Counted from the first letter of the stretch, positions 2,495 to 56,386 are shown. The stretch is DNA of 64,000 bases from an uncultured Planctomycetales bacterium (GCA_964488935.1 CAZAVF010000001.1:753-64752); one strand, 5' to 3'. A program made the numbers and translations. The notes: generated by a model not told the origin, from the letters alone.

Positions 2495-2535
2495 AGCTTA
2501 TAATCCATATATTATAACATCCGACATTTATCAGG

Positions 2536-5146: not shown

Positions 5147-5275
5147 TTTGTGACGGCGTTGGAAAAACCGGCGTAATGACCTGCCCCGCGCTTGCAAGCA
5201 ATAATGCCGTGGACGGCTTGAATACGGCTGTCCACGGCATCAGAAAATCGGCTTACGGTCGGACCGGCCTGCTTT

Positions 5276-25491: not shown

Positions 25492-26277
25492 TTACAGAAC
25501 GGCTATCGCTTTGACCGGACACACCTCTACGCACTCCATACACGAAGTGCATTTAGCGTAATCTATGACCGCCAGGTTATTCTCGACCTTTATCGCCCCG
25601 TATTTGCACGTTTTCTCGCAGCGCCTGCAGGCAATGCAGGCGGTCTTGCAGTATCCCCGCTTGACCGCGGCGGTATCGGAAGAACGGCATGCCACGTAAA
25701 CCTTCTGTTCTTCCGTCCGGAGGGAAAACAGGTGCTTGGGGCAGGCGCTGACGCACTTTCCGCAGGCGCGGCATTTATCTTTATCGACGTGCGGGAGCCC
25801 GTCTTTCCCCAGATGGATGGCGTTAAAGGGACAGACCTTCGCGCATGTTCCCAGCCCTATGCAGCCCCAGGCGCATTTCTTCGGCCCCCCGAGAAGGGCG
25901 GCAGCGGCCCGGCAATCCTTTAAACCGGAGTAAATGTATCTCTCCTCCACGCCTGCGCCGCCGCGGCAATGCAGCACCGCGGTCCTTCTGGAGGATTTAT
26001 CAAGCTTCTTGCCCAGTATGGCCGCAATCTCGTTCTTTACCGTTTCGTCGCCGGCCCGGCAGGCGTCCGGGGAAAGCTCCCCTTTGAGGACCGCTTCGGC
26101 AAACCCGAAGCAGCCCGCGGCGCCGCAGGCCCCGCAATTGGCCCCGGGCAGCAGTCCCATTATCTTCTCCAGGCGCAGGTCGGTGTGCACGGCCAGCTTG
26201 CGCGAGGCGAAAGCCAGCCCGGCCCCGAACAGCACGCCGAGCTCACCCAATATCAATACCGCAGTCAATATGGCCAT
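25492..26277 (-). CDS. rnfB: Rnf complex subunit B (Fe-S, polyferredoxin)
   Basis: N-terminal TM, CxxCxxxC cluster, two 4Fe-4S ferredoxin domains. Confidence 0.85.
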   Translation of the reverse strand: MAILTAVLILGELGVLFGAGLAFASRKLAVHTDLRLEKIMGLLPGANCGACGAAGCFGFAEAVLKGELSPDACRAGDETVKNEIAAILGKKLDKSSRRTAVLHCRGGAGVEERYIYSGLKDCRAAAALLGGPKKCAWGCIGLGTCAKVCPFNAIHLGKDGLPHVDKDKCRACGKCVSACPKHLFSLRTEEQKVYVACRSSDTAAVKRGYCKTACIACRRCEKTCKYGAIKVENNLAVIDYAKCTSCMECVEVCPVKAIAVL

Positions 26278-26295
26278 ATGGATATTCCCTCCGGG

Positions 26296-26904
26296 TCAGA
26301 ACCTGAACCCGTTGAACCCCATGAACGAAAGGCTCATCAGCGAAGCGGTGACAAAAGCGATGGGGAATTCCCTGACCGCTTCCGGCACGCGTGAATATTC
26401 CAGCCTTTCCCTTATGGCGGACATCAAAAGCATGGCCAGAGTATAGCCTATGCCCACGCAGATCCCCTGAAAAACCGAGAATATGAAGCTCCCCGGCAAA
26501 GGTCTGCCCTTGCTGAAGAACATGTCCGTATTGAGCACCGCGACCCCGAGCACTGCGCAGTTGACCGTGATCAACGGCAGGTAGATGCCGAACACGCGGT
26601 AAAGCGCCGGCATGAACTTGCGGACAACCATTTCTACCAGCTGGACGCAGGAAGCTATGACCAGGATAAAAGAAATGGTGCGCAGATAAGCGAGGTTGAA
26701 TGGTATCAAAAGGTAATTATATATCGCCCAGGTTATGGCTGAGGACATGACGATCACGAAAAACACCGCCGAGCTCATGGCCAGGGCCGGGCGGGTCTCC
26801 TTGGAAATGGCGATGAACGAACACAACCCCAGGAAACGCGAAAGGATGACGTTGGAAACGAAGATGCTGGAAATAAAGATCGCCAGGAAATGTCCCGCGT
26901 TCAT
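26296..26904 (-). CDS. rnfA: Rnf complex subunit A
   Basis: FLGLCSF, YLRTISFILVIA, LPLITVNCAVLGVA (near-identical to RsxA core). Confidence 0.85.
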   Translation of the reverse strand: MNAGHFLAIFISSIFVSNVILSRFLGLCSFIAISKETRPALAMSSAVFFVIVMSSAITWAIYNYLLIPFNLAYLRTISFILVIASCVQLVEMVVRKFMPALYRVFGIYLPLITVNCAVLGVAVLNTDMFFSKGRPLPGSFIFSVFQGICVGIGYTLAMLLMSAIRERLEYSRVPEAVREFPIAFVTASLMSLSFMGFNGFRF

Positions 26905-27491
26905 CCCTTCCTCCCCTTCAGCAGATTAAAGAACCCCAGCATCCCCCCTATGACCAAAAGCGCCCCCGGGGGCAGGGCCATCATCAGCGCCGGCTGAAAA
27001 CCGGGAAGCACTGTATATCCCAGCAGTTGTCCGGAACCGAGCAGTTCCCTGACCGCGGAAATAAGCGCCAGCCCCAGGGTGAACCCGGCGCCCATCCCCA
27101 GAGCGTCCGCCAACGAAGCGGAGAGCGTCCGGCGGGAGGCGAAGGCCTCGGCGCGGCCGAGCACCATGCAGTTGACCACGATCAACGGGACATATATACC
27201 CAGGGACTTGTTCAACGCCGGGCTGTAGGCCTTCATCACCAGTTCGGCGATGGTCACGAAAGTGGCGATAATGATGATGAAACACGGTATGCGTATCTTG
27301 TCCGGCACCGCTTTCTTTATCAACGATACGATACAATTCGAGCCGACAAGCACGAAAGTGGCGGCGGCTCCCATGCCCAGCGCGTTGCTTACCGAAGTGG
27401 AGACCGCCAGCACCGGGCAGAGCCCGAGCGCCAGCACGAAAATGGGATTCTGTTTTATTATACCTTTAAGGAACTCGGATAATAATTTCAT
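26901..27491 (-). CDS. rnfE: Rnf complex subunit E
   Basis: LALGLCPVLAVS, LIVVNCMVLGRAEAFA. Track ORF has a 135-codon spurious 5' extension. Confidence 0.85.
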   Translation of the reverse strand: MKLLSEFLKGIIKQNPIFVLALGLCPVLAVSTSVSNALGMGAAATFVLVGSNCIVSLIKKAVPDKIRIPCFIIIIATFVTIAELVMKAYSPALNKSLGIYVPLIVVNCMVLGRAEAFASRRTLSASLADALGMGAGFTLGLALISAVRELLGSGQLLGYTVLPGFQPALMMALPPGALLVIGGMLGFFNLLKGRKG

Positions 27492-28435
27492 CTTGCCTTT
27501 CCCGTGCCGTAAATACGCCCGCGGGTATACCTGTCGATGAAAGGGGCAACGGCGTTCATTATCAGGATGGCGTAACACGTCCCTTCGGGATAGCCGCCCC
27601 ACAGCCTGATCACCACGGTCAACAGGCCGCATCCGGCCCCATAGATCAACTGCCCTTTGGCGGTCAAAGGAGAGGTCACGTAATCCGTCGCCATGTAAAA
27701 GGCGCCCAGCACCAGCCCGCCGGAAAGCAGGTAAAACAGCCAGTCCCCGCTGAACAGTCCGGAAGGTCCGAAAACATAATGCAAGATCCCGGCGGTCAAC
27801 AGATAAGACACCGGGATATGCCAGGTTATATATCCTTTGAGAAAAAGAAAGACCGCGCCGGCCAGCAGCCCCGCTATGCAGACCTCCCCTATACATCCGG
27901 CCTTGTTGCCCAGGAAAAGATCCAGGTAAGGATAAACCTGCTGGAGATGCCCCTCTTTCAGCGCGGACAACGGGGTCGCCGAAGCGACGGCATCGAAACC
28001 CGGGGCGCGGAAAGAGGTCATGTAAGCCGGCCAGGAGGCCATGAGGAACGCCCTTGCCGCGAGGGCAGGATTGAATATGTTCTGTCCCAGCCCGCCGAAG
28101 ATATGTTTCCCCACGGCGATGGCGAAAAAAGAGCCGACCGCCGGGATCCAGAGCGGGACTCCGGCGGGCAGGTTATACGCCAGGAGCAGACCGGTAAGGA
28201 AGGCGCTGCCGTCGGACAATGTGACCTGCCTGCGCGTCATTTTCTGCAGCAGCCATTCTGAAACGAGCGCTGCCGCGACGGCCGTGACGATAACGGCGAG
28301 GGCCGCATAACCGAAGAAATAGACGCCGGCCGCCCCCGCTGGAAGCAACGCCAGGCTGACGCTCCACATTATGCGCGCCGTGGACTCGCGCGCATGCAGA
28401 TGCGGCGCCGCGGCGACTATAAGCTTATTTCCCAT
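27488..28435 (-). CDS. rnfD: Rnf complex subunit D
   Basis: AAPHLH start, GGLGQNIFNPALAARAF, TDYVTSP, DRYTRGRIYG match RnfD/NqrB. Confidence 0.85.
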   Translation of the reverse strand: MGNKLIVAAAPHLHARESTARIMWSVSLALLPAGAAGVYFFGYAALAVIVTAVAAALVSEWLLQKMTRRQVTLSDGSAFLTGLLLAYNLPAGVPLWIPAVGSFFAIAVGKHIFGGLGQNIFNPALAARAFLMASWPAYMTSFRAPGFDAVASATPLSALKEGHLQQVYPYLDLFLGNKAGCIGEVCIAGLLAGAVFLFLKGYITWHIPVSYLLTAGILHYVFGPSGLFSGDWLFYLLSGGLVLGAFYMATDYVTSPLTAKGQLIYGAGCGLLTVVIRLWGGYPEGTCYAILIMNAVAPFIDRYTRGRIYGTGKAR

Positions 28436-28949
28436 TACGCAAGGCCTCCCTTACTTCGGCCGCTTTCAGGTCCACGGACGATATTACCGCCCGCGAAGAG
28501 ATCGTCGCCCCGGTTATCGCCTGCACCCCGGAGACCCGGGCCGCCTCCACGCCGCTGAACCTGCCGGTGAAAGATACTTCCGCCACTCTGCTTCCCAATC
28601 CGGGGGTCTCGTTCTGGTTGAGGATCTTTATCGCTTTTATCTTCGCCCCGGCGTCCATGCAGACCATGGTATCTATCATACCGGAATACCCCTTACCGGC
28701 GGCTTTGAACAAAACGCCCAGCAACCTGCCGCTTTTATCATAAGCCTTGTAAAAGAGGACCTCGTCGCCTTTACGTACCGGCGTGAAAGCCGCGGCCTCC
28801 GGCTGCAGCTCTTTCAACGCCGCTTCTTCCTCCAGGCCCGCCTGTGCCGCTATACGCGGGGCGGTGACGGCATTGACCGCCGCAAGAAGACCACCTGCCG
28901 ATAATGCTATGAGGCCCAAAATGAACGCGAACCTGAATATATCCCTCAT
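28425..28949 (-). CDS. rnfG: Rnf complex subunit G (FMN-binding)
   Basis: SGMIDTMV, ETPGLG, ITGATISS FMN-bind motifs. Start re-set (track ORF has 63 extra codons). GGAGG RBS. Confidence 0.85.
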   Translation of the reverse strand: MRDIFRFAFILGLIALSAGGLLAAVNAVTAPRIAAQAGLEEEAALKELQPEAAAFTPVRKGDEVLFYKAYDKSGRLLGVLFKAAGKGYSGMIDTMVCMDAGAKIKAIKILNQNETPGLGSRVAEVSFTGRFSGVEAARVSGVQAITGATISSRAVISSVDLKAAEVREALRNGK

Positions 28950-30217
28950 CTGGCGGCCTCCGCTTTGGCTCTCTTTATATACTGAACCAGCCGGCGGTTG
29001 GCCGGACACACATAAGTGCACGCTCCGCATTCCACGCAATCGGCCAGCCCTTGCCGTTTCGCTTCCTCGAACAATCCCCTCTCGGCAGCCGCCCCCAGCA
29101 TACAGGGAAGCAGTCCGGTGGAACATACGCGCACGCACCTGCCGCAGCGTATGCAGGCGCTCTCTTCCAGGATACGGCTGCTCTTCTTCCCCAGCACCAG
29201 CACGCCGCTGGTGGTTTTTGTTACAGGGACGTCCGTCCCGGCCTGGGTGATACCCATCATCGGCCCCCCGATGATTATTTTACCGGGTTCTTCCTTAAGC
29301 GGCCCGCATGAAGCGATCAATTCCGATACCGGGGTACCGGTCCGGACCAGCAGGTTTGCGGGATTCGACAGGCAATCGCCGGTGACTGTGACCACCCGTT
29401 CGTAAAGAGGTTTCCCCAGATAAACGGCCTCGTAGGCGGCGAAAACGGTGACCACGTTCTGCACTACGGCCCCTGCCTCGAACGGCAGCTTGCCGCGGGG
29501 GACTTCCCTGCCCAGAACGCTCCTGATCAGTTGTTTTTCCCCGCCCTGGGGATAAAAAGACTTTAATTCCTTCACCCTCAGCGGTTTTGAGACCCTGCCG
29601 AGGAACAGTTCTATCGCCCTTGGTTTATTGTCCTCTAACGCTATGCAGATGTCCTCGACTCCCAGTATGCGGCCGAGCAGCAGCGCCCCTTTGATGATCT
29701 CGTCGCTTTTCTCCAGCATCAGCCGGTAGTCTGAAGTGAGATATGGCTCGCATTCCGCCCCGTTGACGATCAGCGTTTGTACCCGGACCGGCGGTTTAAG
29801 TTTGAGAAAAGACGGGAACCCCGCTCCTCCCATCCCCACAAGACCGGCATCGCGTATTATATCGAGGAGCTCTGCCTGCGGCAAAGAATCCACAACGCCC
29901 GCCTCGCGCGCCCGGAAAGCGAAAGAATCGGGCAGCTGCGTCTCTATCACCGCTGCGCCGCACCTGCCGAGCACGGGATGCGCGCAGGTTTCCAGCGAAG
30001 ATACCGTTCCGGTCACGGAAGAATGGACGGCCGCCGACGGCATGGCCCCGGCGGAAGCTATCCGCTGCCCGGTAAGGACTTTATCTCCCGGCTTGACCTC
30101 CGGCAGGCAAAGCTTGCCCAGATGCTGGCAGAACGGGATGAATACCTTGCCCGGGGGAGGCAGAACGGTTATCTTCTTATCCTCGGTAGCTTCTTTGCGG
30201 TGCTCTAATTTAACCAT
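28946..30217 (-). CDS. rnfC: Rnf complex subunit C (NADH-binding, 2x4Fe-4S)
   Basis: GMGGAGFPSFLKL, NGAECEPYLTSD, CIRCGRCVRVC and CGACTYVCP. Start re-set to MVKLEH (track ORF has about 223 spurious N-terminal codons). Confidence 0.85.
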   Translation of the reverse strand: MVKLEHRKEATEDKKITVLPPPGKVFIPFCQHLGKLCLPEVKPGDKVLTGQRIASAGAMPSAAVHSSVTGTVSSLETCAHPVLGRCGAAVIETQLPDSFAFRAREAGVVDSLPQAELLDIIRDAGLVGMGGAGFPSFLKLKPPVRVQTLIVNGAECEPYLTSDYRLMLEKSDEIIKGALLLGRILGVEDICIALEDNKPRAIELFLGRVSKPLRVKELKSFYPQGGEKQLIRSVLGREVPRGKLPFEAGAVVQNVVTVFAAYEAVYLGKPLYERVVTVTGDCLSNPANLLVRTGTPVSELIASCGPLKEEPGKIIIGGPMMGITQAGTDVPVTKTTSGVLVLGKKSSRILEESACIRCGRCVRVCSTGLLPCMLGAAAERGLFEEAKRQGLADCVECGACTYVCPANRRLVQYIKRAKAEAAR

Positions 30218-31467
30218 GCGCTCATTCTCTTGTAGAAGATATTCGCCAGCCCGGTCAGCGCGAACAGGCAGCCGATCACGGAAATAATGAATATTTCCGG
30301 GAGCCTTTCCGCTATCTTGCTGCTTAAAAGCATGAAGGTAAGGAACCCCGCGTGCATTATTATTTCCATCGCGCTGAAGACCTTGCCGCGCATCTGGCTG
30401 TCGCTGACCCTGTGTATTATGGTGTTGGAGGCGATCATGATGGGGGAAACGCTCAACCCCAGAAGTAACGCCAGACCGGCAGCCACGTTGAAAAGAGGAT
30501 ACCTCTGCAGCATGAAGGCGAAAATTATCAGTATGATCCCGGCCGAGGCAAGGGAAATGAAGATCACCCTGTAATGCGATATCCTGGACCCGAAACGCCC
30601 GTAGACCACCGAACCGAGAAAAAGCCCGGCGCCGAGGAAAACGATGAGCAGACCGAGATCTTTGGTGGCGGAATGCAGGGTTTTCTGCACGAAAACTATC
30701 ATCACCACGTAGAGGGCCCCCAGGGCCGCGGAAAGCGAGAAAATAAGCCCCACCGTGAAACGTATGTGCTTGTTCTTCAGGACGTATTGCCAGCTCTCCT
30801 TCAGTTCCTGCAGCACCGTCTTCTTGAATATCTCCTCCATATCCCTGACCGGATGGGAAACCGCATGTTCCCGTATTCTCCTGCATGCCCCGGTGTAAAT
30901 AAAGAAGATCAGGCCTGCGGAAAAGGCGAAACTAAGCGAATCCAGGAAAAAACCGCTCTTGGGCCCGATCCATTCCACCAGCAGCCCGCTTATGCCGAAC
31001 CCGGCTACCGCAGCGATCATTCCGGTCATATTGGCCAGGGTGTTGGCCATCAACAGATGCTTCTTCTCCACGAGCTCCGGCAGTATCGCCATCTTGGCCG
31101 GGACAAAGAACCTGCCGATGCTGAAAATAACGAATATGACCGTATACAAAGGAAGGAAGTTGCTGGTATGAAAAAAGAAAAGCGGTATGCTCAACACGAG
31201 AGCCGCGCGCAGGAAATCGCAGACATACATGGTGCGGCGTTTGTCCCAGCGGTCCACGTAGACCCCGGCCACCGGACCCACGACAAAGACCGGGAGGATG
31301 GTAAAGGACATTATCTTGGCGATCTGCATCGGGGAACCAGGGGCTTTAAGATAGATAAGCCCCAGTAAAGCCATCTGGTCGAGCCTGTCCCCCAGTTGGG
31401 AAACGATCTGGCCGAGCCAGAGCAGGAAGAAATTACGGTTCTTCAATACCTGGACGTATTCAGACAT
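30205..31467 (-). CDS. MFS transporter (12 TM, DHA3/EntS-like efflux family)
   Basis: 12 predicted TM; MFS motif region GDRLDQ..., G-x-x-x-DRWDKRR. Confidence 0.8.
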   Translation of the reverse strand: MSEYVQVLKNRNFFLLWLGQIVSQLGDRLDQMALLGLIYLKAPGSPMQIAKIMSFTILPVFVVGPVAGVYVDRWDKRRTMYVCDFLRAALVLSIPLFFFHTSNFLPLYTVIFVIFSIGRFFVPAKMAILPELVEKKHLLMANTLANMTGMIAAVAGFGISGLLVEWIGPKSGFFLDSLSFAFSAGLIFFIYTGACRRIREHAVSHPVRDMEEIFKKTVLQELKESWQYVLKNKHIRFTVGLIFSLSAALGALYVVMIVFVQKTLHSATKDLGLLIVFLGAGLFLGSVVYGRFGSRISHYRVIFISLASAGIILIIFAFMLQRYPLFNVAAGLALLLGLSVSPIMIASNTIIHRVSDSQMRGKVFSAMEIIMHAGFLTFMLLSSKIAERLPEIFIISVIGCLFALTGLANIFYKRMSAWLN

Positions 31468-37652: not shown

Positions 37653-38627
37653 TTAACCGCGCTGCGGGGCCCCGCAATGGATCACGTCCCCCGCCATCAC
37701 TTTCTCCGTCAAGCCTGAATCACGCCTCACCAGCAGTCCGCCGTCGTCTTCTATGTCCACCGCCTCTCCCTCGATCACTCCCCTGGGCAGTATGACCTTG
37801 ACCCTTTTTCCGAGGGTGGAATTAAGCCCGCGCCATTTCCCGGTTATCAGAGCGTGATTGCCCCGGCAAAACTCTATATAATAAGTCTCCATCCTGAAAA
37901 ATATCTCCTGGAGCAGGGCCACGCGGTCCACTTTCATGCCTGCGGCTTCCGTTATCGCGGCCGTGCCGGGCAGGAGTTCCGAGGGGCCGTTATTCACGTT
38001 CAAGCCGACTCCCACCACCACGTAAGCCGCCCCGCCGGCGCCCCGGCCGGCTTCGGTAAGTATACCTCCGGCCTTCCGGACGTCCAGCAGGATATCATTG
38101 GGCCACTTTATCCCGGTAAGGACCCCGGTAACGTTATGAACGGCTTCGGATACGGCTACCGCCGCCAGCAGATTGAGCAGGGAAAAACGCCCCGGTGAGA
38201 ACGACGGGCGCAGCAAGAGGGAAAAATAGATGCCCTTCCCGGCCGGGGAGAACCATGTCCTTCCCGCCCTGCCGCGGCCGGACGACTGGCTCTCCGCCAC
38301 TACCGCCGTGCCCTCCTGAGCGCCTTCGGCGGCCAGACGCGATGCGTCGTCCATAGTGGAAACGGTCTTGTCCAGATAAACTATACGCCTGCCGACCTTG
38401 ACCGTCGCGAGGTTCTTCTCTATCTCTGCGGGAAGCAGACAATCCGGGATAAAGGTCATCTTATAGCCCAGGTGCGGCACGGTCTCTATCCCGTAACCGT
38501 TATCGCGCAGCCGGCGCACCTCTTCCCACAACTCCTCCGCGCCGATGCCCAGCGCCGAAGTAAGTTCTTCCTCCCGGACGAACCGTTCGCGTTCTTTAAG
38601 CAATGTGATTATCTTTTCCCGCAGCAT
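37653..38627 (-). CDS. birA: Bifunctional biotin--[acetyl-CoA-carboxylase] ligase / repressor
   Basis: N-terminal HTH, GRGRAGRTW biotin-binding motif, C-terminal SH3-like domain. Start re-set to MLREKI. Confidence 0.85.
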   Translation of the reverse strand: MLREKIITLLKERERFVREEELTSALGIGAEELWEEVRRLRDNGYGIETVPHLGYKMTFIPDCLLPAEIEKNLATVKVGRRIVYLDKTVSTMDDASRLAAEGAQEGTAVVAESQSSGRGRAGRTWFSPAGKGIYFSLLLRPSFSPGRFSLLNLLAAVAVSEAVHNVTGVLTGIKWPNDILLDVRKAGGILTEAGRGAGGAAYVVVGVGLNVNNGPSELLPGTAAITEAAGMKVDRVALLQEIFFRMETYYIEFCRGNHALITGKWRGLNSTLGKRVKVILPRGVIEGEAVDIEDDGGLLVRRDSGLTEKVMAGDVIHCGAPQRG

Positions 38628-38643: not shown

Positions 38644-39051
38644 TCAGAAGTGCACCTCCATCGCCTTGAACGGACATATCCGCACGCAGACACCGCAGGC
38701 GATGCATTTATCCTCGTAGAAAATTATCTCCCTGCTCTTCCCATCCGGCAGCAGGGCCCCGGCCGGGCAAAGGGGGACGCAGACACCGCAGTCCGTGCAT
38801 TTTTCCTCGTTCCTCACCACGTCCCGGCTTAAAGGCTGAATCTTCACCCCGCAGGACTTCAGATAATGCAGCCCTTTTTCGAAAGCCTGCTCTTCACCGT
38901 TCAGCTCCAGGACCATCAACCCTTCCTCGTCGGGAGTAACATAAGCCTTCAGGATGTTGAAATTAAGCCCGTAATCCTTGACCAGCTTGAAAACGATCGG
39001 CTGTTCAACCAGTTTACGGGGAAAATGCAGGACCACTTTTCTGGAGATCAT
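38644..39051 (-). CDS. NIL-domain ferredoxin (2x4Fe-4S), COG1900 partner
   Basis: N-terminal NIL domain plus CTDCGVCVPLCP and CIACGVCVRICP clusters. Confidence 0.7.
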   Translation of the reverse strand: MISRKVVLHFPRKLVEQPIVFKLVKDYGLNFNILKAYVTPDEEGLMVLELNGEEQAFEKGLHYLKSCGVKIQPLSRDVVRNEEKCTDCGVCVPLCPAGALLPDGKSREIIFYEDKCIACGVCVRICPFKAMEVHF

Positions 39052-39067
39052 CTTTCCGCTCCTTGCC

Positions 39068-40276
39068 TCACTCTTTCTTGTAAAGCCTCTCGTTGAGCGG
39101 CTTCACCTTGTAGCCGCTCTCGGCCCCCGGCAGCGCCGCCGAAGGCTCGGTAAGGAAAAACTCGCCTTTTTCTATCCTGGTCTTCAGCAGCAGGGCGATC
39201 TTGCGCGCGCGCGCGTAGCTGGAAAGGCTGCCGGTGGGGACGGTCTTGCCGCGCACTTTGATGTTCCCCGAGCGCAATTCGGCGTAACTGACCTCCGCGA
39301 TGACGCGGGACGTCCTTTGCGGATAATCGCGTCCATAGTCCACGACCGGAGCGTATATCTCGGCATCGGTCACAGCAGCCCGCCCGGCCACCTCCTCGTC
39401 GAGGACGGGGATGGGCACGCCTATGCCGACGGAAAGCGTGGCCCCGTAACCGGCCATGCTCGTGCCTATCAGCCATTCCGGGCTCATCTGTTTCAGGTCG
39501 CCGATGACCGCAAGCGTACCGCCTCCGCCAAGAGGGACCCCGTTCCTGCCGCGTTCGGCGCAGGGATTATGCTGCGTCCCGTGCCAGGCTATGTAGCCGG
39601 TCCCGCCCCCGAGGAAAATACGGGTGCCTATGCCTATGGTACGGTAATAAGGGTCTTTCAGCAGAGGAGAAAGCTGCCCGGCGGAAGAATAATTGGCGTT
39701 GCCGAGCCGCGGCTTGAGCATACCCATATAAGTGAACACGGTCTTGCCTGAGAGATTGACCGCCACGTTATAATTCTGATAACAGTTGCGCATGTTGAAA
39801 AGGACCGCCTCATTGAGGTCCTTGATGTTCAGCAGCGTCTCCAGTTTTTTCCGGGGGTAGCAGTCGGTTCCGTAAGCGCTGCATTCCAGTTTGACGTCTT
39901 TGCCGGCCGCCAGTTCCTGGATCACGTGCCCGCCGCCGTATTTGAATTCCCCGGGGAAGACCTTGTTGCGCGGGTCGTCGTCCGGCACGGCGGTGGCCCC
40001 GAGGAAAACGTCCACGGCGCCGAAAGCGGCATAGACCGGCACGTCGTTGACCGTGCAGCTGCCGCCTCCCAGCTTGATCCTCGGCTTGGAGTGACCGATA
40101 TTGAAATAAACCCCGCTGGAACACATGGGACCGAAAGTGGCGGTGGTGACCACGTCCACTTCCCTGGCGGCCTTCCTGGCGCCTTTTTTCGCCACCAGGT
40201 CTATGATCTCCTCGGCGGTGACCACCACGGCCTCTCCCCTGCCGATCTTACCGTTGATCTCCTTGATAGTCTTCAT
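39068..40276 (-). CDS. COG1900/DUF39 homocysteine-biosynthesis (sulfide-incorporating) enzyme
   Basis: DUF39 core conserved along length. Start re-set to MKTIKEING with GAGGGGAA RBS (track ORF has 38 extra codons). Confidence 0.7.
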   Translation of the reverse strand: MKTIKEINGKIGRGEAVVVTAEEIIDLVAKKGARKAAREVDVVTTATFGPMCSSGVYFNIGHSKPRIKLGGGSCTVNDVPVYAAFGAVDVFLGATAVPDDDPRNKVFPGEFKYGGGHVIQELAAGKDVKLECSAYGTDCYPRKKLETLLNIKDLNEAVLFNMRNCYQNYNVAVNLSGKTVFTYMGMLKPRLGNANYSSAGQLSPLLKDPYYRTIGIGTRIFLGGGTGYIAWHGTQHNPCAERGRNGVPLGGGGTLAVIGDLKQMSPEWLIGTSMAGYGATLSVGIGVPIPVLDEEVAGRAAVTDAEIYAPVVDYGRDYPQRTSRVIAEVSYAELRSGNIKVRGKTVPTGSLSSYARARKIALLLKTRIEKGEFFLTEPSAALPGAESGYKVKPLNERLYKKE

Positions 40277-40296
40277 TTCCCCTCGCTTTGGCCCGT

Positions 40297-40518
40297 TTAA
40301 ACCGAGACCACTTCTTTCACTTCCGGCACTTCCTGTTTCAGGATGCGTTCTATGCCCATTTTCAGGGTGAACTGGCTCATTGCGCAGCATCCGCAGCTGC
40401 CGGTAAGTCTTACCTTCACCACGCCGTCTTCGCCGACCTCCACCAGCTCCACGCTTCCGCCGTCGGCCGCCAGCATGGGCCTGATCTTCTCCAGCACAGC
40501 CTCAACCTTTTCTCTCAT
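40297..40518 (-). CDS. NifU-like Fe-S cluster scaffold domain protein
   Basis: NifU C-terminal domain with CGCC / CxxC pair (LTGSCGCCAMS). Confidence 0.7.
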   Translation of the reverse strand: MREKVEAVLEKIRPMLAADGGSVELVEVGEDGVVKVRLTGSCGCCAMSQFTLKMGIERILKQEVPEVKEVVSV

Positions 40519-40594
40519 CTAATCCTCCCGTATGCCTGACCCGTTTATGTGCGGCTCTATTTTGAACGGTCCGGTCCCGGTCTGCGAAGACGCC

Positions 40595-41494
40595 TCAGGA
40601 CAAATATCTCTCCCCCGTATCCGGGAGGACCGTAACCACCGTTTTTCCCCTGCCGAGCTTTTCGGCCGCTCTCAGGGCGGCCCAGACCGCGGCCCCCGCG
40701 GAGATGCCGGCGAAGATACCTTCGCGCGCCGACAATTCAAGACGGCATGACAAGGCTGCCTCGTCGGTGACCGTGATTATACCGTCTATCAATGAAACAT
40801 CCAACACGGGCGGGATGAACCCCGCGCCTATACCCTGTATTTTATGCGCTCCCGGCTTTCCCCCGGAAAGCACCGGGCTGGCCGCAGGCTCGACCGCGAT
40901 AACCTTAACGCGTGGATTCTCCGCCTTCAAAGCCGCGCCTACGCCTGTCAACGTCCCTCCGGTGCCGACCCCGCAGACAAAAGCGTCGATCCCGCCTGCG
41001 GTATCGCGCAGGATCTCCACGGCGGTGGTCCTGCGATGGGCCTCGGGATTGGCCGGATTACTGAACTGCCTTATGGAATAACTCTTCTTCAAGGAACGGC
41101 CTATTTCCTCCGCCTTATCTATCGCCGCGCGCATGCCGCCTGAAGCCGGCGTAAACACGACTTCCGCCCCGTAACTGTCCAGTATTTCGCGGCGCTGGCG
41201 GCTCATATTCTCCGGCATGACTATAAGACATTTGTATCCGCGTAAAGCGGAAAGCATTGCAAGTCCTATGCCGGTATTGCCGCTGGTGGGCTCGATGATC
41301 GTATAACCGGGCTTGAGCAGACCGCGGCGTTCCGCCTCATTGACTATATTAAGACAAATACGGTCTTTGATGCTGCCGCCGGGATTGCCCCCCTCTATCT
41401 TCACGAAGACGTCGGCGCCGCTCCGCGCGGGCAGAGCGTTCAATTTTACCAGCGGGGTATTGCCTATTAAACAAGAAACGTCCCTAGTGAACAT
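40595..41494 (-). CDS. cysK: Cysteine synthase (O-acetylserine sulfhydrylase)
   Basis: PLP-lysine region SIKDR, TSGNTG, GVGTGGT motifs. Confidence 0.9.
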   Translation of the reverse strand: MFTRDVSCLIGNTPLVKLNALPARSGADVFVKIEGGNPGGSIKDRICLNIVNEAERRGLLKPGYTIIEPTSGNTGIGLAMLSALRGYKCLIVMPENMSRQRREILDSYGAEVVFTPASGGMRAAIDKAEEIGRSLKKSYSIRQFSNPANPEAHRRTTAVEILRDTAGGIDAFVCGVGTGGTLTGVGAALKAENPRVKVIAVEPAASPVLSGGKPGAHKIQGIGAGFIPPVLDVSLIDGIITVTDEAALSCRLELSAREGIFAGISAGAAVWAALRAAEKLGRGKTVVTVLPDTGERYLS

Positions 41495-41516
41495 GGCGTA
41501 TTTTTATGGCGGAGCT

Positions 41517-41960
41517 TCATATCTGATAAACCATCTGCGCTTTATTCTTGCGGTTGAGATTTTCCAGCAGGTCGGCGAAGGTCACGCCGTCGACTATGCG
41601 CAGGGTGGCGCCGGAGACCCTCTGCCAGACGTCCCTGAAAACGCATTTATAGAGATCCCGGCACCCTTTATATCCGTCCTCCACGCAGGCGATCGGTTCC
41701 ACCGGAGAAGCGATGAAACGCACCACCTGGCCCAGGGATATCTCCCCAGGAGTCCTGGCAAGAAGATAACCGCCTACTTTACCCCGGCGGCTTTCGACAA
41801 AACCGCCTTTTTTCAGTTCCAGCAGCACCTGTTCAAGGAACTTGATCGGTATGTCCAGCCTGCCGGCCATATGCTGTATGCTTACCGGTTTATCCCCGTA
41901 ATGGATCGCCAGGTCAAGTATGGCTTTAAGCGCGTAATCGCCTTTGTATGTTATTCTCAT
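41517..41960 (-). CDS. Rrf2 family transcriptional regulator (CymR/IscR-like)
   Basis: Rrf2 wHTH (YALKAILDLA...), 22 nt upstream of cysK. Confidence 0.8.
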   Translation of the reverse strand: MRITYKGDYALKAILDLAIHYGDKPVSIQHMAGRLDIPIKFLEQVLLELKKGGFVESRRGKVGGYLLARTPGEISLGQVVRFIASPVEPIACVEDGYKGCRDLYKCVFRDVWQRVSGATLRIVDGVTFADLLENLNRKNKAQMVYQI

Positions 41961-42029
41961 GACTATAATCCTGATTATAATAGTAGAGTATACCAGGTTA
42001 ATGCCGTTCTGTCAACCCTATTTCCGACA

Positions 42030-42045
42030 TTGGTCCATGGACCAA
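42030..42045. promoter_or_regulatory. Perfect 16-bp palindrome TTGGTCCATGGACCAA upstream of the Rrf2 gene (candidate operator). A second inverted repeat CTGTCT-GA-AGACAG lies at about 42058-42071
   Basis: Seen in sequence about 70-85 nt upstream of the Rrf2 start. Confidence 0.35.
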
Positions 42046-42128
42046 ATCGGCGCGTCACTGTCTGAAGACAGCGGTTTGTTCATGATCTGATACCGAACGG
42101 CGTCTTTAAGGGCGCGGCGACGCAACGA

Positions 42129-43034
42129 TCACAGGGAAAGCAGGTATTTGGCTGCGGAAAGCGCCGCTTTAGCTCCTTCACCGGCGGCGATAACGATCTG
42201 TTTTTCCGGGACATCGGTAACGTCCCCGGCGGAGAACAATCCGGGGATATCCGTTTCATTGGAACAATTGACCTTTATCTCCCCTTTTGTGTTCTTTGAG
42301 ACGGCCGCCGCGAATTCCGAGTTGGGAATGAGCCCTATCTCCACGAAAATCCCCTGCACCGGCAGCATCGACTCTCTACCTTCTGCGGAAAGCCGGATAC
42401 CTTCCACAAAACGACCCCCTCTCACTTCCATTACCGAGGTATTCTTGCGGATCTCCACGTTGCCGGCTCCGGCCAGCCTGTCAATAAGGACCCTGTCGGC
42501 GGTGAACTCCCCGGAAGATTCCACCACGTACACCCTGGAGGCTATGCGCGACATCTGAAGGGCCGCGTCCAGCGCTGAATTGCCGCCGCCGATGACCGCG
42601 ACCTCCCTGCCGGCGAACAAAGGCCCGTCGCAGACCGCGCAATAGGTAAGCCCTCTGCCGAGGAACTCCTTTTCTCCCGGGACCCCCAGCAGACGCGAAC
42701 GTTTCCCCGTCGCGGCGATGACCGCCCGGGAGCTGTAGACATCTCTTTCCCCGGCGACTGTAAACCGGCCGCCGTCCCTCGCGATGGACAGGGCGGTCTC
42801 CGGCTGCACCAGTCTTATGCCGAATTTCTTCAGATGTTCTTCGAACCTCGCGGTCAGGTCCGGCCCGCTGATCACCTGGCATCCGGTGTAATTCTCAATG
42901 CGGCCGCTCCAGGCCGCCTGGCCGCCGATGTCGCGGCTGATCATGATAAAATCAAGACCCTTCCTGGCGGCATAGATGGCGGCAGTTACTCCCGCCGGGC
43001 CTCCCCCTATGATCAAAAGATCCGACTGTTTCAT
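42129..43034 (-). CDS. trxB: Thioredoxin-disulfide reductase
   Basis: GGGPAG FAD motif, redox CAVCDG, GGGNSA NADPH motif. Confidence 0.9.
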   Translation of the reverse strand: MKQSDLLIIGGGPAGVTAAIYAARKGLDFIMISRDIGGQAAWSGRIENYTGCQVISGPDLTARFEEHLKKFGIRLVQPETALSIARDGGRFTVAGERDVYSSRAVIAATGKRSRLLGVPGEKEFLGRGLTYCAVCDGPLFAGREVAVIGGGNSALDAALQMSRIASRVYVVESSGEFTADRVLIDRLAGAGNVEIRKNTSVMEVRGGRFVEGIRLSAEGRESMLPVQGIFVEIGLIPNSEFAAAVSKNTKGEIKVNCSNETDIPGLFSAGDVTDVPEKQIVIAAGEGAKAALSAAKYLLSL

Positions 43035-43055: not shown

Positions 43056-43292
43056 TCAAACCAGACCCAGCGCATGTTTTATGCGCTCGCGGTCGAACCC
43101 GACGATAAGCTCCCCTTCGATGTCGACGACCGGCACTCCCATCTGGCCGGTCCTCTCCACGATCTCATCCGCAGCAGAGCGGTCGGCGGCAACGTCGATG
43201 TCCTCGAAAACAACGTTGTTCTCCTTAAGGAACTGTTTCAGCCGGATGCAGTAAGGACAGGTGGGGGTGCTGTAAACCTTTACGCTCTTCAT
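43056..43292 (-). CDS. Glutaredoxin-like protein (CPYC)
   Basis: TCPYC active site, 78 aa thioredoxin fold. Confidence 0.7.
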   Translation of the reverse strand: MKSVKVYSTPTCPYCIRLKQFLKENNVVFEDIDVAADRSAADEIVERTGQMGVPVVDIEGELIVGFDRERIKHALGLV

Positions 43293-43801: not shown

Positions 43802-43963
43802 TTATATCTTCTCGAACATATCCTTGCCGACGCCGCATTCGGGACAAACCCAGGTGTCCGGCAGCGCTTCGAACGCCGTCCCCGGCGCGATCCCCGCCGA
43901 AGGGTCACCCTGCTGGGGATCGTATACATAACCGCATACTGTGCAACGGTATTTCTGCATCAT
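43802..43963 (-). CDS. Rubredoxin
   Basis: CTVCGYVYD...CPECG iron-binding pairs. AAAGGAGG RBS before ATGATG. Track ORF extends to an upstream ATG at 43996. Confidence 0.9.
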
Positions 43964-44235
43964 GGCCTCCTTTATATCGCGGTCGATACGGAACATATGA
44001 CCGGTTGAAATTAGGCTCCCGCCGGCTGATCCTTCGACAAAACCCGGCAGTGGGCCTGTCTAGCCGACTGCTACAGTGAGCTTGTCGAACTGCTCAGCAC
44101 AGGCGCCAGCGGCTTCTCTGTTACTTGAACGGAGTTCCTCCGAAGCGGTCCCGCTCTTTGTGCAACGATCGCGTTCCTCTTCGTCCTCATTCCCGGGCTT
44201 CAAAGCCCGGTGGTTTCTGCGCGGGAGAATGATCT
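43964..44235 (-). ncRNA. Structured leader / repeat element copy 2 between flavodiiron-protein gene and rubredoxin gene
   Basis: Contains CCCGGGcuuugaaGCCCGGG hairpin, CUUCGGAGG, and the modules UUCGACAAGCUCACU...UUGUCGAAGGAUCAGCC..GGGAGCC matching copy 1. Confidence 0.45.
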
Positions 44236-45432
44236 TTACTTGCGGGACTCTATAAGTCTGCGCCCGAAATCACGCCCGAAATCACGGCAACTTTCCAGGT
44301 CCTCCGTAGAGGGGCTATACTGGAAGGAAATTCCCGGGCAAACCGGCGGCATGCCGGTCCCGGTCAACATTGTTTCTATTTCCTTCACCGCCCCGCCCGC
44401 CCAGCCGAAAGAACCGAAAACCGCGCTAAGACGGTTCTGCGGTTTTAATCCTTTGAGCAGATACAGGAATCCGGCAAGGTTCGGCAGCATACCGTTGTCG
44501 TGGGTGGATGAACCGAACAGGTATCCTCCGGCTTCCAGCATCCTGCCTATTATCTCCGTGCGGTCGGCCCGGTTTATGTCGAACACCTCCGTCTCCACTC
44601 CCGCCTCCGACAGGCCGGAATAGATCGCGCCGGCCATTTTCCCGGTGCCTCCCCACATGCTTTCATAAACGATCACTGCCCTGGGGACGGAAGAATTCAG
44701 CGCCCAGCGGGCGTAGTTCCCGAGGATCGCGCCCGGGTCGCTGCGCCATATCATCCCGTGGCTGGGAGCGATCATGGAGACCGGCAGGCCGCTTTTCAGA
44801 AGTTCGGCGATCTTGCCGGATACAAGCCGGCTCAAAGGCCAGAGGATATTGGCGTAATATTTGGCGGCCTCGCGCATGAGCAGGCCCTGTTCGGCCTCGT
44901 CCGCGAACCTTCTGCAGCCGGCAAGATGCTGCCCGAAAGCGTCGTTGGAGAAAAGTATTTTCCCATCATCCAGATAAGTGAACATGCTGTCCGGCCAATG
45001 CAGCATGGGAGCTTCTATAAAAGTAAGCGATTTTCTGCCTAAAGAAAGTTTGTCGCCGGTCTTTACGGTCTGGAAAGGCCAGTCCGCGTAATAATGCCTT
45101 AAGAGCCCTTCACGGCATTTTTCAGTACCCAACAGCTTTGCCCGCGGGGCCGCGCGCATCACTTCCGGCAGGGCTCCCGAATGGTCGGTTTCGACGTGGT
45201 TCGCCACGACGTAATCTATCTTCTCCGGAGGCACGACAGCGGAGATATTCTCCAGCAGTTCCCGGGAGAAAGGTCCGAACACTGTGTCTATGAGGGTGAT
45301 CTTGTCGTCTATTATAAGGTAGGAATTATACGTCGTTCCGGCGGAAGTGTTGAAGGTGTGCCCGTGAAAATGCCTTACGCTCCAGTCCACCGCGCCGACC
45401 CAGAACACATCTTTGCTTATTTCGCAACGCAC
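44236..45432 (-). CDS. Flavodiiron protein (rubredoxin:oxygen/NO oxidoreductase, FprA/ROO)
   Basis: Metallo-beta-lactamase-like diiron domain HVETDHSGALPE plus C-terminal flavodoxin domain. GTG start with GGAGG RBS. Confidence 0.85.
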   Translation of the reverse strand: MRCEISKDVFWVGAVDWSVRHFHGHTFNTSAGTTYNSYLIIDDKITLIDTVFGPFSRELLENISAVVPPEKIDYVVANHVETDHSGALPEVMRAAPRAKLLGTEKCREGLLRHYYADWPFQTVKTGDKLSLGRKSLTFIEAPMLHWPDSMFTYLDDGKILFSNDAFGQHLAGCRRFADEAEQGLLMREAAKYYANILWPLSRLVSGKIAELLKSGLPVSMIAPSHGMIWRSDPGAILGNYARWALNSSVPRAVIVYESMWGGTGKMAGAIYSGLSEAGVETEVFDINRADRTEIIGRMLEAGGYLFGSSTHDNGMLPNLAGFLYLLKGLKPQNRLSAVFGSFGWAGGAVKEIETMLTGTGMPPVCPGISFQYSPSTEDLESCRDFGRDFGRRLIESRK

Positions 45433-48854: not shown

Positions 48855-49958
48855 TTACAGCCCGGCTTTCAGCGTGCTGTTCTCCAGTTCTTCTATCTCC
48901 GCTTTGAGTTTGTCCGGCAGCCCCAGGACCCCGACATCCATGAATCCCCGTACGATCAGGGACTGGGCTTCCTGCGGGGAGAAACCGCGGCAGCGCAGAT
49001 ATTCTATCTCGTCCTTGTTTATCCTGCCTATGGCGGCTTCATGGGAGAGGTCCACGTCGCGGTATTCGGTCTCCATCTCCGGGATCGCGTAAATACTCCC
49101 TTGCTCGGGCAATATCAGCCCGCGGCATTCCAGGTGCCCCTTCACGTCGCCGGCTGCGGCCTTGATATGCCCGCGGGCCACCACTTTCCCGCCCAGGCTG
49201 ACCGCCCTGGAGATGATCTCGGCCTGTGTCCGTTCCGCCTGCAGGACGACGCGGGAGCCTATGTCCTGCAGGGAACCGGGATGCGAAAGTATTATGGAAT
49301 TGAAACTGGCCCGCGCCTTTCTGCCGTGTAAAAGCGCCGTGGGATACATGGTGATGTCGCGCACCGGTCTCAGGCAGACGTAATTGGATATGAACGCGGC
49401 TTCTTCCCCGACGGAAGCTATGCTTACCGGCTTCACGCTGACGCTTTCCTGCCAGGAATGGATCATGGTGAAATTCAAATATGCCCCGTTATGCACGAAG
49501 AATTCGGATATGCCCAGATGCACGCTTTCGGAGGCGGAATGAGAAGCCGAGCATCCGGTTATTATGTAGGCCCTCGCCCCCTCTTCCACTACGATCAGGT
49601 TATGCACCTTCTGTTCAAAGCCGCGCTGTTTCAGGAAAAGGCAGGCCTGCACGGGGAATTCTATCGTATGGCCGCGCTTGACCCTGATGAAATACCCGCC
49701 CTCGGTCTCTTTGTCGAAGTCCCGGCCCGCGGAACGGAAATTGGCGCCGAAATACCCGGCGGCCGCCGGGTCTCTTTTCAGGGCCTCCCTTATCTCCATT
49801 ATCTCCAGTCCGTCCGAGAACGACCGGGAGAACATGAGCCCGGAGTCCTGCTGCAGAAAACTTCCCGAGCGGTCCTTCTCGGAGAAATCCATCCCCGAGG
49901 AGACAATGGTATCGCGATCGCGATCCTCCAGATTATCTTGCCGATTGCGCTCTGTCAT
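48855..49958 (-). CDS. Fe-S cluster assembly protein SufB/SufD family
   Basis: C-terminal SufBD beta-helix region. N-terminal 22 codons overlap sufC and may not be real (alternative ATG at about 49892). Confidence 0.7.
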   Translation of the reverse strand: MTERNRQDNLEDRDRDTIVSSGMDFSEKDRSGSFLQQDSGLMFSRSFSDGLEIMEIREALKRDPAAAGYFGANFRSAGRDFDKETEGGYFIRVKRGHTIEFPVQACLFLKQRGFEQKVHNLIVVEEGARAYIITGCSASHSASESVHLGISEFFVHNGAYLNFTMIHSWQESVSVKPVSIASVGEEAAFISNYVCLRPVRDITMYPTALLHGRKARASFNSIILSHPGSLQDIGSRVVLQAERTQAEIISRAVSLGGKVVARGHIKAAAGDVKGHLECRGLILPEQGSIYAIPEMETEYRDVDLSHEAAIGRINKDEIEYLRCRGFSPQEAQSLIVRGFMDVGVLGLPDKLKAEIEELENSTLKAGL

Positions 49959-50661
49959 CGCACCCTATGCATTTGTCGTAACCGCGTTCCCTTATGTTCT
50001 CGAATATCTCCTTCGGCCTGCCCACGCACCACATCTTCCCGTCTATCATCACGCAGCCTTTCCTGGCGTTTATATAATCCAGGATATACCCGGTGTGTGT
50101 TATGATCAGCGCGGACTTCCCTTCTTCCTTGAGATACTCATCAAGCACCCTGCCCATCACCGAGATGTTCTCCAGGTCCACTCCCGACTCCGGTTCGTCG
50201 AGGAGGAGCATATCGGGATCCTGCAGTATCAACTGGAAAAGCTCCGAGCGTTTCATTTCGCCGCCGGAGAACCCGATATTTATGTCCCTGGATAAATGCT
50301 GGGAAAGGGAAAGCTTACCGGACATGTTCTTTATAAGCCCCCCGTCCCCGTTGAGACGGCCGGCGATCTGGGAGAGCTTGACGCCCCTGACCTGCGGAGG
50401 ATGCTGATACATAAGCCCCAGGCCGAGCTTTACCCTCTCCTCCATGGGAAGGCCGTCTATCCTGGTCCCCTTCAGCATGATCTCTCCGGAGGTGACTTTG
50501 TAGCCTTCAAACCCCATTATAGCCTTCAGCAGCGTGCTCTTGCCGCTCCCGTTCGGGCCGAACAGAACCACTACTTCCCCTTTGCGTATATGCATGTTCA
50601 CGCCCTGAAGAATGCGGTGACCGGATATTTCCACGCTTATGTCTTTGACCTCAAGCATCAT
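49933..50661 (-). CDS. sufC: Fe-S cluster assembly ATPase SufC
   Basis: Walker A GPNGSGKST, signature FSGGEMKR, Walker B LLLDEPESG. Confidence 0.85.
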   Translation of the reverse strand: MMLEVKDISVEISGHRILQGVNMHIRKGEVVVLFGPNGSGKSTLLKAIMGFEGYKVTSGEIMLKGTRIDGLPMEERVKLGLGLMYQHPPQVRGVKLSQIAGRLNGDGGLIKNMSGKLSLSQHLSRDINIGFSGGEMKRSELFQLILQDPDMLLLDEPESGVDLENISVMGRVLDEYLKEEGKSALIITHTGYILDYINARKGCVMIDGKMWCVGRPKEIFENIRERGYDKCIGCDDRAQSAR

Positions 50662-53546: not shown

Positions 53547-54560
53547 TCAGCAGAATATGCCGGGGACCTTCTCCCCGCAAAAACGGCATTTTCCGCTATC
53601 GATCCCGCAATTCCTTACGCTGAATATCCCCCTTGTCACCAGAAGTTCCCGGCACTTATGACAATGCGTGTCCCCGCCCCAGCCTGAGACGTTGCCGGCG
53701 TAAACGTATGAAAGCCCGGCCCGCTTTCCCGCCTCCACCGCCCTCCTCACAAGAGGCTCCGGGGTGGACTGAAAAGCGTTGAATTTATAATCCGGGTGGA
53801 AACGCGAAATGTGCCAGGGTGTATGCCTGTCCAGGGAAACGATGAATCCCGCCAGACCTTCGAGTTCCTCTTCCGAGTCGTTCAACCCGGGTATCAGCAG
53901 CGTGGTGAGCTCAACCCAGATGCCGAGCTTTTTCATCAGGCGCACCGATTCCAGGACCGGCTCCAGAGACGCCCCGCAGTACTCGCGGTATGAATCCTCC
54001 CTGAAGAATTTTATGTCCACGTTGGCCGCGTCCAGCCATGGGGCGGCTGTCTCCAGCGCTCTGCCGGTCATATAACCGTTGGTGACGAAAACGTTCTTCA
54101 ACCCTTTTTCACGCGCCGCTTTGCAGGTATCTAACGCGTATTCCATGAATACCGTGGGTTCGGTATAAGTATAGGAAACACCGGCGCAGCCGTTCTCCAG
54201 CGCCGACTCCACAATCTTCTCCGGAGGGATTTCCTCCTCCCTGGCTGATCCGTCGTAAACGGAAACATCCTGCGATATCTGCCAGTTCTGGCAGAACCCG
54301 CACCTGAAATTGCAGCCGGGAAAGGCGATCGACATGCTCAATGAACCCGGGAGAAAATGATAAAGCGGTTTCTTCTCCACCGGGTCGACGTTCCCGCAGA
54401 CGGGATTGCCGTAGGCGTGCGTCATCAGAATCCCGTCCCTGTTGAAACGGACGCCGCAAACGCCGCTGCCGCCCGGCCCGATACGGCAGGAATGACGGCA
54501 AAGCAGGCAATGCACCGCGCCGCCGTCCAGTTTATCGTATAATATCGCCTCTTTATCCAT
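53547..54560 (-). CDS. Radical SAM enzyme of the AmmeMemoRadiSam (AmrS) / PFL-activase-like family
   Basis: CNFRCGFCQNW radical-SAM CxxxCxxC with the CQNW signature, plus N-terminal Cys-rich HCLLCRHSC...GVCGV. Confidence 0.65.
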   Translation of the reverse strand: MDKEAILYDKLDGGAVHCLLCRHSCRIGPGGSGVCGVRFNRDGILMTHAYGNPVCGNVDPVEKKPLYHFLPGSLSMSIAFPGCNFRCGFCQNWQISQDVSVYDGSAREEEIPPEKIVESALENGCAGVSYTYTEPTVFMEYALDTCKAAREKGLKNVFVTNGYMTGRALETAAPWLDAANVDIKFFREDSYREYCGASLEPVLESVRLMKKLGIWVELTTLLIPGLNDSEEELEGLAGFIVSLDRHTPWHISRFHPDYKFNAFQSTPEPLVRRAVEAGKRAGLSYVYAGNVSGWGGDTHCHKCRELLVTRGIFSVRNCGIDSGKCRFCGEKVPGIFC

Positions 54561-54575
54561 ATCCGGCGGCTGCCT

Positions 54576-55292: not shown

Positions 55293-55301
55293 CTCTCCTC
55301 C

Positions 55302-56369: not shown

Positions 56370-56386
56370 CGTGAACGCCGGGACGG

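Follow-up and report, generated by a model that had tools for sequence, protein, structure and literature searches.

A conserved promoter-overlapping operator candidate and a putative two-input Rrf2 regulator at a cysteine and homocysteine biosynthesis operon of Candidatus Omnitrophota

Organization of the operon

We analysed a 64,000-nucleotide (nt) stretch of DNA filed under an uncultured Planctomycetales bacterium (GCA_964488935.1 CAZAVF010000001.1:753-64752; hereafter the window, with positions counted from its first letter), focusing on an operon that opens with a gene for an Rrf2-family regulator and on the element by which this operon is probably controlled. Profile matches confirmed that rrf2, cysK, nfu, COG1900, NIL-ferredoxin and birA form a co-directional run, as had been described in an earlier reading made from the sequence alone (the sequence-only reading), with all six genes on the minus strand. 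The Rrf2 regulator (147 amino acids (aa), 41517-41960; PF02082, E = 1.5e-34) carries Cys92, Cys100, Cys106 and Asp8 and has a C-terminal tail that ends in VYQI. It is followed by CysK, O-acetylserine sulfhydrylase A (40595-41494; TIGR01139, 416 bits against a cutoff of 351), the translation of which shows the TSGNT loop and the QF motif, and by a 73-aa iron–sulfur (Fe–S) carrier of the Nfu type, consisting of a NifU C-terminal domain (40297-40518; PF01106) with a CxxC motif whose cysteines, C42 and C45, are kept in 41/41 sequences. Next come COG1900 (also DUF39 or HcyBio; 402 aa, 39068-40276; PF01837, 5e-149, 496 bits), a putative subunit of L-aspartate semialdehyde sulfurtransferase (hereafter L-ASST), and its presumed partner subunit, a NIL domain joined to a 2x[4Fe-4S] ferredoxin (38644-39051; PF09383 and Fer4). 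The biotin-protein ligase gene birA (37653-38627) begins 16 nt downstream of the NIL-ferredoxin gene in the same orientation, again as previously noted, and is probably co-transcribed with the operon. The intergenic gaps along the operon measure 16-76 nt; the longest open reading frame for COG1900 starts at 40390, but the family match begins only at residue 54 of that frame, and a start at 40276 (MKTIKEING) puts a 20-nt gap behind nfu. No terminator-like site was found between the operon genes, and an Rfam scan of the window returned one tRNA only, with no S-adenosylmethionine or other riboswitch near the operon.

A search of 185,579 species genomes placed the closest COG1900 genes, 94% identical, in metagenome-assembled genomes of Candidatus Omnitrophota, one of which is Candidatus Undivivens industriae. 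The gene order Grx–TrxR–Rrf2–CysK–Nfu–COG1900–NIL-ferredoxin was found again in about 30 Omnitrophota loci, and COG1900 adjoins the NIL-ferredoxin gene in 72 loci; Dehalococcoidia retain these two genes only, with cysK added in some. The exact Rrf2 protein sequence has no record in public assemblies.

A conserved element on the operon promoter

Every orthologous Rrf2 gene is preceded by the pattern TTGACA-N16/17-TATACT, running into CTACTA-N5-ATAGAGATTATAG. In the window, the −35 box TTGACA (42010-42015, minus strand), which is conserved at all orthologous loci, and the −10 box TATACT (41987-41992, minus strand) together give 11/12 consensus matches with a 17-nt spacer, and the −10 box has a C at position 5 in 25/25 non-redundant sites. 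Footprinting across 27 loci resolved a single 30-nt block, the left end of which is the −10 box itself. In the window this operator candidate reads TATACTCTACTATTATAATCAGGATTATAG (41963-41992, minus strand), and its family consensus is TATACTCTACTAtnatnATAGAGATTATAG. Five variable nucleotides occupy the centre of the block, which forms an imperfect dyad about positions 14-15; it takes in the −10 box, the transcription start predicted near 41980 and, in the window clade, the ribosome-binding site AGGA, and its conservation extends 24 nt past the −10 box. No covariation pointing to an RNA hairpin was seen within it. With a matrix built from the 30-nt block, a single site was found across the 64-kb window (43.8 bits, the next best match scoring 5.8 bits), and the sites in 873 kb of related loci were confined to positions directly upstream of Rrf2 genes. 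As judged by this pattern of conservation, the control site is probably the 30-nt element on the promoter and not the palindrome that lies further upstream.

That palindrome, TTGGTCCATGGACCAA (42030-42045), is a perfect 16-bp intergenic repeat and, together with a second inverted repeat, CTGTCT-N2-AGACAG (42058-42071), had been put forward as an operator candidate in the sequence-only reading. Both repeats exist where they were placed; the operator role did not hold up, as neither repeat is conserved or exceeds chance, and both stand upstream of the −35 box, the palindrome 14 nt away from it. The two repeats fall inside a genome-specific segment of about 70 nt that is missing from the three closest relatives, in which Rrf2 is 90% identical. 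The window contains two perfect 16-bp palindromes, and first-order Markov simulations gave a mean of 1.25, with at least one in 71% of them. Further copies upstream of sulfur genes, which might have been expected of an operator, are absent from the window, where TTGGTCCATGGACCAA occurs once. The RNA fold of the palindrome-bearing segment is not exceptional (z = -0.61), and a role as terminator is unlikely, no T-run following the palindrome. Taken together, these data indicate that the palindrome is probably without a regulatory role. The spacer between trxR and rrf2 (42046-42128 region) is 168 nt long here as against about 97 nt in relatives, and the extra stretch of about 70 nt has no recognisable origin.

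The element heads sulfur-assimilation operons in relatives

Scanning metagenome contigs with the core pattern returned at least 120 stretches, of which 73 had the full promoter context. Across related loci and metagenome contigs there are at least 102 operator sites, most of them upstream of an Rrf2 gene; among the matches listed, 73/73 full-context sites lie upstream of sulfur genes, and cysK is present in every operator-headed operon long enough to judge. Most of these operons begin with Rrf2 and continue with one of three gene sets: cysK-(DUF169)-nfu-COG1900-NIL-ferredoxin-(PP-loop protein-nifS-birA); metY-cysK-metX-metW; or genes for a PAPS-reductase-like (CysH-like) protein, a PHO4-type permease, CysK and a siroheme-synthase-like protein. 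At least nine operator-headed operons have a first gene other than Rrf2. Seven of them (L093, L108, L136, L138, L154, L179 and L201; L numbers denote individual loci) run DUF2292-DUF3034-...-metY-cysK-metX-metW, and two (L105 and L168) hold the PAPS-reductase-like, PHO4, cysK and siroheme genes; three further candidates for this group, L163, L140 and L129, proved on inspection to have Rrf2 first. In a distant relative, the Rrf2 of which is 52% identical, the −10 box of a metY-PALP-ThiS-ThiF-Rrf2 operon coincides in part with a weaker copy of the element, which is shifted by 7 nt relative to the promoter.

The occurrence of this operator in front of further sulfur-assimilation operons in relatives defines a regulon. 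In comparative genomics, such a pattern typically marks a repressor site with its regulon, the cognate protein being, by co-occurrence, most plausibly the Rrf2 regulator. It also supports the proposal, made in the sequence-only reading, of a sulfide-linked cysteine and homocysteine regulon under a CymR-like Rrf2 protein, in that one promoter–operator heads both metY-cysK-metX-metW operons and operons with cysH-like, PHO4-permease and cysK genes. At L136, L138, L154, L179 (oriented 2200-3360) and L201, the metY-cysK-metX-metW operons under this operator open, behind a leader of about 200 nt, with genes for a small DUF2292 protein (YezD-like) and a secreted DUF3034 protein. Elsewhere, at L084 (3731-4000), a more IscR-like, tail-bearing Rrf2 gene lies beside nifS-nifU, and its promoter has another perfect repeat, CCGAGT-N5-ACTCGG, so that the operator type varies between Rrf2 branches.

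Cysteine triad and C-terminal tail of the regulator

The regulator belongs to the Rrf2 superfamily by PF02082, by TIGR00738 (110 bits against a cutoff of 73) and by its predicted fold, but falls below the equivalog cutoffs of both IscR (TIGR02010, 97 bits against 208) and CymR (NF047409, 91 bits against 195). Its best solved relatives, Thermincola potens IscR and Bacillus subtilis CymR, are about equally close in sequence and predicted fold. The three cysteines C92, C100 and C106 are present in 120/120 close homologs and align with positions 92, 101 and 107 of T. potens IscR, the cluster ligands; we take these positions to be serines in the crystallised mutant. Asp8 is found in 118/120 homologs. 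In NsrR, Asp8 is the fourth ligand of the [4Fe-4S] cluster (PMC5411485).

The C terminus has a Tyr-x-Ile end in 120/120 homologs, and among 57 window proteins this Rrf2 alone ends in this way. Among 150 representatives of the nearest 50%-identity clusters, 92 have an aromatic-x-Ile end, and 61 of these also have the Cys triad. In Staphylococcus aureus, the C-terminal peptides of CymR (...GYMFYI) and CysE (...DDYII) insert into the active site of CysK, where the terminal Ile, kept in all CysE and CymR tails compared, makes conserved contacts (preprint 10.1101/2024.09.19.614015). Only one tail-less ortholog was found, at L027 (5210-5640): it ends in RTLVK in place of YQI, and cysK is missing from its operon, which looks like one deletion that took the tail and its presumed partner together.

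The regulator therefore resembles several known systems without coinciding with any of them. Like CymR–CysK of B. subtilis and S. aureus, it would be an Rrf2 repressor of cysteine and sulfur genes with an aromatic-x-Ile end (FYI in CymR, YII in CysE), and its gene adjoins cysK, as CAC2236 does in Clostridium acetobutylicum. It differs from CymR, which is cluster-free, in its three invariant cysteines and Asp8, in scoring below the CymR cutoff and in probably also controlling homocysteine genes. Its operator candidate presumably differs from the published CymR box as well. IscR of Escherichia coli and of T. potens (PDB 4CIC) provides the best sequence and structure match, with the Cys triad on the T. 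potens ligands, and in relatives the gene run includes nifS, nfu and mnmA, an arrangement resembling that of Clostridium perfringens, where the Rrf2-iscS-iscU-trmU operon (Cpe1786) is induced by cysteine limitation. In contrast to IscR, however, the window protein lacks a His after the third Cys, scores below the cutoff and has Cys, Met and sulfate genes as predicted targets; no operator stands at sufCB in the window, while nfu is in the operon and nifS in or after it in relatives. With NsrR of Streptomyces coelicolor ([4Fe-4S], three Cys and Asp8) it shares Asp8 along with three cysteines, but the identity is only 25-28% in Foldseek alignments and there is no link to nitric oxide-detoxification genes.

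An enzyme pair of a known kind, probably homocysteine-forming

COG1900 and the NIL-ferredoxin correspond to L-ASST of Methanosarcina, MA1821/MA1822 (PMC12068725), and would make homocysteine from aspartate semialdehyde and a sulfur donor. The match of COG1900 to HcyBio covers profile positions 1-349 of 349. The cysteines that the sequence-only reading held to be decisive are not lost: exactly two, C52 and C139, are invariant, in 80/80 sequences, which fits the conserved Cys54 (essential in MA1821) and Cys131 of L-ASST (PMC12068725) by position and count only. In the protein encoded beside it, the NIL domain is followed by two CxxCxxCxxxCP motifs, all eight cluster cysteines of which are kept in 72/72 sequences. 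COG1900 fails the model of methanogenesis marker 16 (MMP16; TIGR03287, 113 bits against a cutoff of 364) and has no Fer4 match, and so does not contain the inserted ferredoxin domain of the MMP16/ComF paralog. The C-terminal CBS domain of the archaeal form, a non-defining feature, has no match in it either. A PDB sequence search with COG1900 found no solved relative.

The enzyme pair is thus of a known kind and already annotated. The label 'methanogen-type' of the sequence-only reading does not mark it out as unusual: the need for this pathway in homocysteine synthesis has genetic proof in Desulfovibrio and is inferred for Dehalococcoides (PMC5764234), and public NCBI and JGI names for the Omnitrophota homologs are 'homocysteine biosynthesis protein' or 'L-aspartate semialdehyde sulfurtransferase'. 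The protein is 71% identical to its Dehalococcoides mccartyi homolog. The window shares with L-ASST the COG1900a-type domain with two conserved cysteines, the adjacent NIL-2x[4Fe-4S] ferredoxin and the setting of an anaerobe with a link to sulfide assimilation. It differs in that a small Nfu gene stands beside or between the subunit genes, in the cysK operon under a presumed Rrf2 repressor, in lacking the CBS domain and in that COG2122 is not seen nearby.

At L029 (968-5786) and L044 (747-5558) the Rrf2 operon with COG1900 also holds metY, metX and metW, so that both homocysteine routes are in one unit; the L029 operon additionally has DUF169. As some Omnitrophota carry these genes in the COG1900 operon, sole reliance on L-ASST is not to be inferred. 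Both routes are likewise kept by Methanosarcina acetivorans (PMC12068725). A tblastn search of the window with the relatives' metY, metX, metW, DUF169, PP-loop protein, nifS, AIR-synthase-like and Thi4 sequences gave no matches.

At seven loci (L004, 6001-7954; L019, L021, L031, L040, L061 and L079) the 73-aa nfu lies between COG1900 and the NIL-ferredoxin gene and not before them. The placement of Nfu next to or between the L-ASST genes suggests that it works directly with L-ASST, delivering clusters or sulfur. In most Omnitrophota, at L011 (7593-9595) and 30 other loci, a gene for a PP-loop ATPase-like protein (an SGGxDS-type motif, SAGADS, with no Pfam match) and a NifS-type cysteine desulfurase gene stand between the NIL-ferredoxin gene and birA; the two are missing at this place in the window and its three closest relatives, and no copy is present in the window. 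In many Dehalococcoidia (L025-L080, about 5200-5980) COG1900 has a gene for a Thi4-like flavoprotein directly upstream, and at L023 one such gene sits between Rrf2 and cysK.

Proposed regulation and alternatives

We favour, with a probability of roughly 0.7, the view that the run is a sulfur amino-acid operon under autoregulation in a bacterium of Candidatus Omnitrophota; in this model Rrf2 acts at the 30-nt dyad and may receive Fe–S and CysK-tail inputs. A single sigma-70-type promoter (TTGACA-17-TATACT) would drive the rrf2, cysK, nfu, COG1900 and NIL-ferredoxin genes, and probably birA and the genes after it. CysK would form cysteine from O-acetylserine and sulfide, the small Nfu probably providing Fe–S clusters for the ferredoxin. 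An Rrf2 dimer most likely represses by occupying the imperfect dyad, where it would occlude the −10 box and the transcription start, and is most likely not bound to the palindrome further upstream. The Fe–S input would be a cluster held by Cys92, Cys100 and Cys106 with Asp8 of the partner subunit. More speculatively, the Tyr-x-Ile tail may dock in the CysK active site with CysK as co-repressor, as in CymR–CysK; a shortage of sulfide or cysteine would then let O-acetylserine push the tail out, with derepression of the operon as the result. As cysK is itself one of the operon genes, the co-repressor would control its own synthesis, and methionine may exert feedback on the enzyme through the NIL domain. 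A broader proposal, that this Rrf2 and a large, mostly uncultured branch of the family are two-input sensors combining an NsrR/IscR-type Fe–S cluster with a CymR-type CysK-docking tail, is tentative, and we rate it somewhat below even odds; dual sensing of Fe–S and CysK/O-acetylserine is a prediction from residue patterns.

Several observations weigh against this interpretation. The dyad is imperfect, with 6-7 of about 13 pairs, and in the window clade the right half reads TCAGG instead of TAGAG, a change that also creates the ribosome-binding site. No second operator site was found in the 64-kb window, including the sufCB, sufC and grx promoters, and for this reason the regulon is seen only in relatives; binding of the operator by this Rrf2 would likewise follow from co-occurrence only. 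A strict rule linking the tail to an adjacent cysK was rejected owing to two homologs, the tail-less P0140, beside a cysK-like gene (Pfam PALP only), and the tail-bearing P0168, beside nifS-nifU. For the enzyme, an AlphaFold model of COG1900 (48 close homologs) reached a predicted local distance difference test score (pLDDT) of 43, too poor for comparison with MA1821, and COG2122, required by Desulfovibrio vulgaris, was not seen in the window.

Two simpler modes of sensing compete with the two-input proposal. The regulator could be a plain IscR-type sensor of Fe–S status, set over an operon mainly for Fe–S supply (cysK, nfu and, in relatives, nifS), with a tail that does not dock to CysK. Consistent with this idea, T. 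potens IscR is the best solved relative with the Cys triad aligned, nifS lies downstream in relatives, and a tail-bearing relative stands beside nifS-nifU. We nevertheless consider it unlikely, though the strongest competitor, given the score below the IscR equivalog cutoff, the lack of an operator at sufCB in the window, the Cys, Met and sulfate genes of the operator-controlled operons, with cysK in every one long enough to judge, and the invariance of the tail. A little less probable again is a repressor purely of the CymR type, relying on CysK and O-acetylserine, in which the three cysteines would serve as a thiol redox switch or be structural. Such a reading draws on the Tyr-x-Ile tail, the cysK adjacency, the sulfur regulon and the sensing of oxidation by S. 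aureus CymR through a cysteine thiol (PMC9338935), but CymR proper is cluster-free and its equivalog cutoff is not reached, whereas the triad is spaced and placed as in cluster-binding Rrf2 proteins and Asp8, the NsrR cluster ligand, is almost invariant.

Other alternatives concern the operator and the product. The 30-nt block contains a −10 box and might be merely an unusually conserved promoter or leader, or be bound by some other, unlinked regulator; this is improbable in view of the conservation 24 nt past the −10 box, the variable centre and dyad symmetry, the lack of covariation for a hairpin, the co-occurrence of the block with an Rrf2 gene at most sites and its retention at L081, where it is shifted by 7 nt relative to the promoter. 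Binding of Rrf2 to TTGGTCCATGGACCAA, to CTGTCT-N2-AGACAG or to both, upstream of its own gene, is the least probable of all: the repeat is perfect and intergenic, but it is missing in relatives with a 90% identical Rrf2, has no second copy in the window, stands upstream of the −35 box by 14 nt, a place unsuited to a repressor, and belongs to a class of which chance alone gives about one per window. Returning to the enzymes, the pair might make a thiol other than homocysteine, for example from a different aldehyde, as the MMP16 paralog does in serving coenzyme M. COG1900 paralogs do vary in substrate (PMC12068725), and where metX and metY share the operon, as in some Omnitrophota, a second homocysteine route would be redundant. 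This too has a low probability, on a par with that of the conserved-promoter explanation: the protein has the COG1900a cysteine pattern, a NIL-ferredoxin partner and no inserted ferredoxin domain, fails the MMP16 model and is close to its homolog in D. mccartyi, from a genus inferred to use the homocysteine route, and M. acetivorans keeps both routes too (PMC12068725).

What is new here is the regulatory element, the regulon and the double-featured regulator, as a variant of known Rrf2 systems; the enzyme pair adds little. In the literature searched we found neither a combined Fe–S and CysK-docking regulator described nor any account of how L-ASST genes are controlled at the level of transcription. 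If the two-input proposal is true, sulfide/O-acetylserine and Fe–S status would be coupled to one operator over sulfate reduction, cysteine synthesis and both homocysteine routes, including L-ASST. The analysis provides a concrete operator and regulon candidate for sulfur assimilation in Omnitrophota, a phylum without genetics, and a first candidate regulator for the L-ASST route. A widespread Rrf2 subgroup seemingly merges cluster occupancy with partner-enzyme docking, the two sensing modes best known among Rrf2 proteins; if borne out, this would account for the way in which anaerobes link cysteine supply with Fe–S demand and would add to the proteins for which the active site of CysK serves as a signalling socket. 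The Nfu gene beside or between the L-ASST genes is a lead on how the enzyme gets clusters or sulfur.

Surroundings of the operon

Upstream of the operon lie a thioredoxin-reductase-like gene (42129-43034) and a glutaredoxin-like gene (43056-43292), both on the minus strand; they are syntenic neighbours in many Omnitrophota and stand outside the operator-controlled unit. Downstream of the operon are DUF3108, mnmA and nadA. A minimal sufC-sufB/D pair at 48855-50661, 7 kb upstream, has no operator copy. At 53547-57745 a sulfur-related run encodes a radical SAM protein, a 238-aa protein of no known kind, a ThiI-like protein with an NFACT-R domain and a 452-aa pyridoxal phosphate enzyme of the PALP family. 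The window also encodes Rnf complex components at 25492-30886 (an RnfC-like protein, two Rnf-Nqr membrane subunits and an RnfB-like polyferredoxin), a rubredoxin (43802-43996) and a flavodiiron-like protein (44236-45432), which together are consistent with a strict anaerobe.

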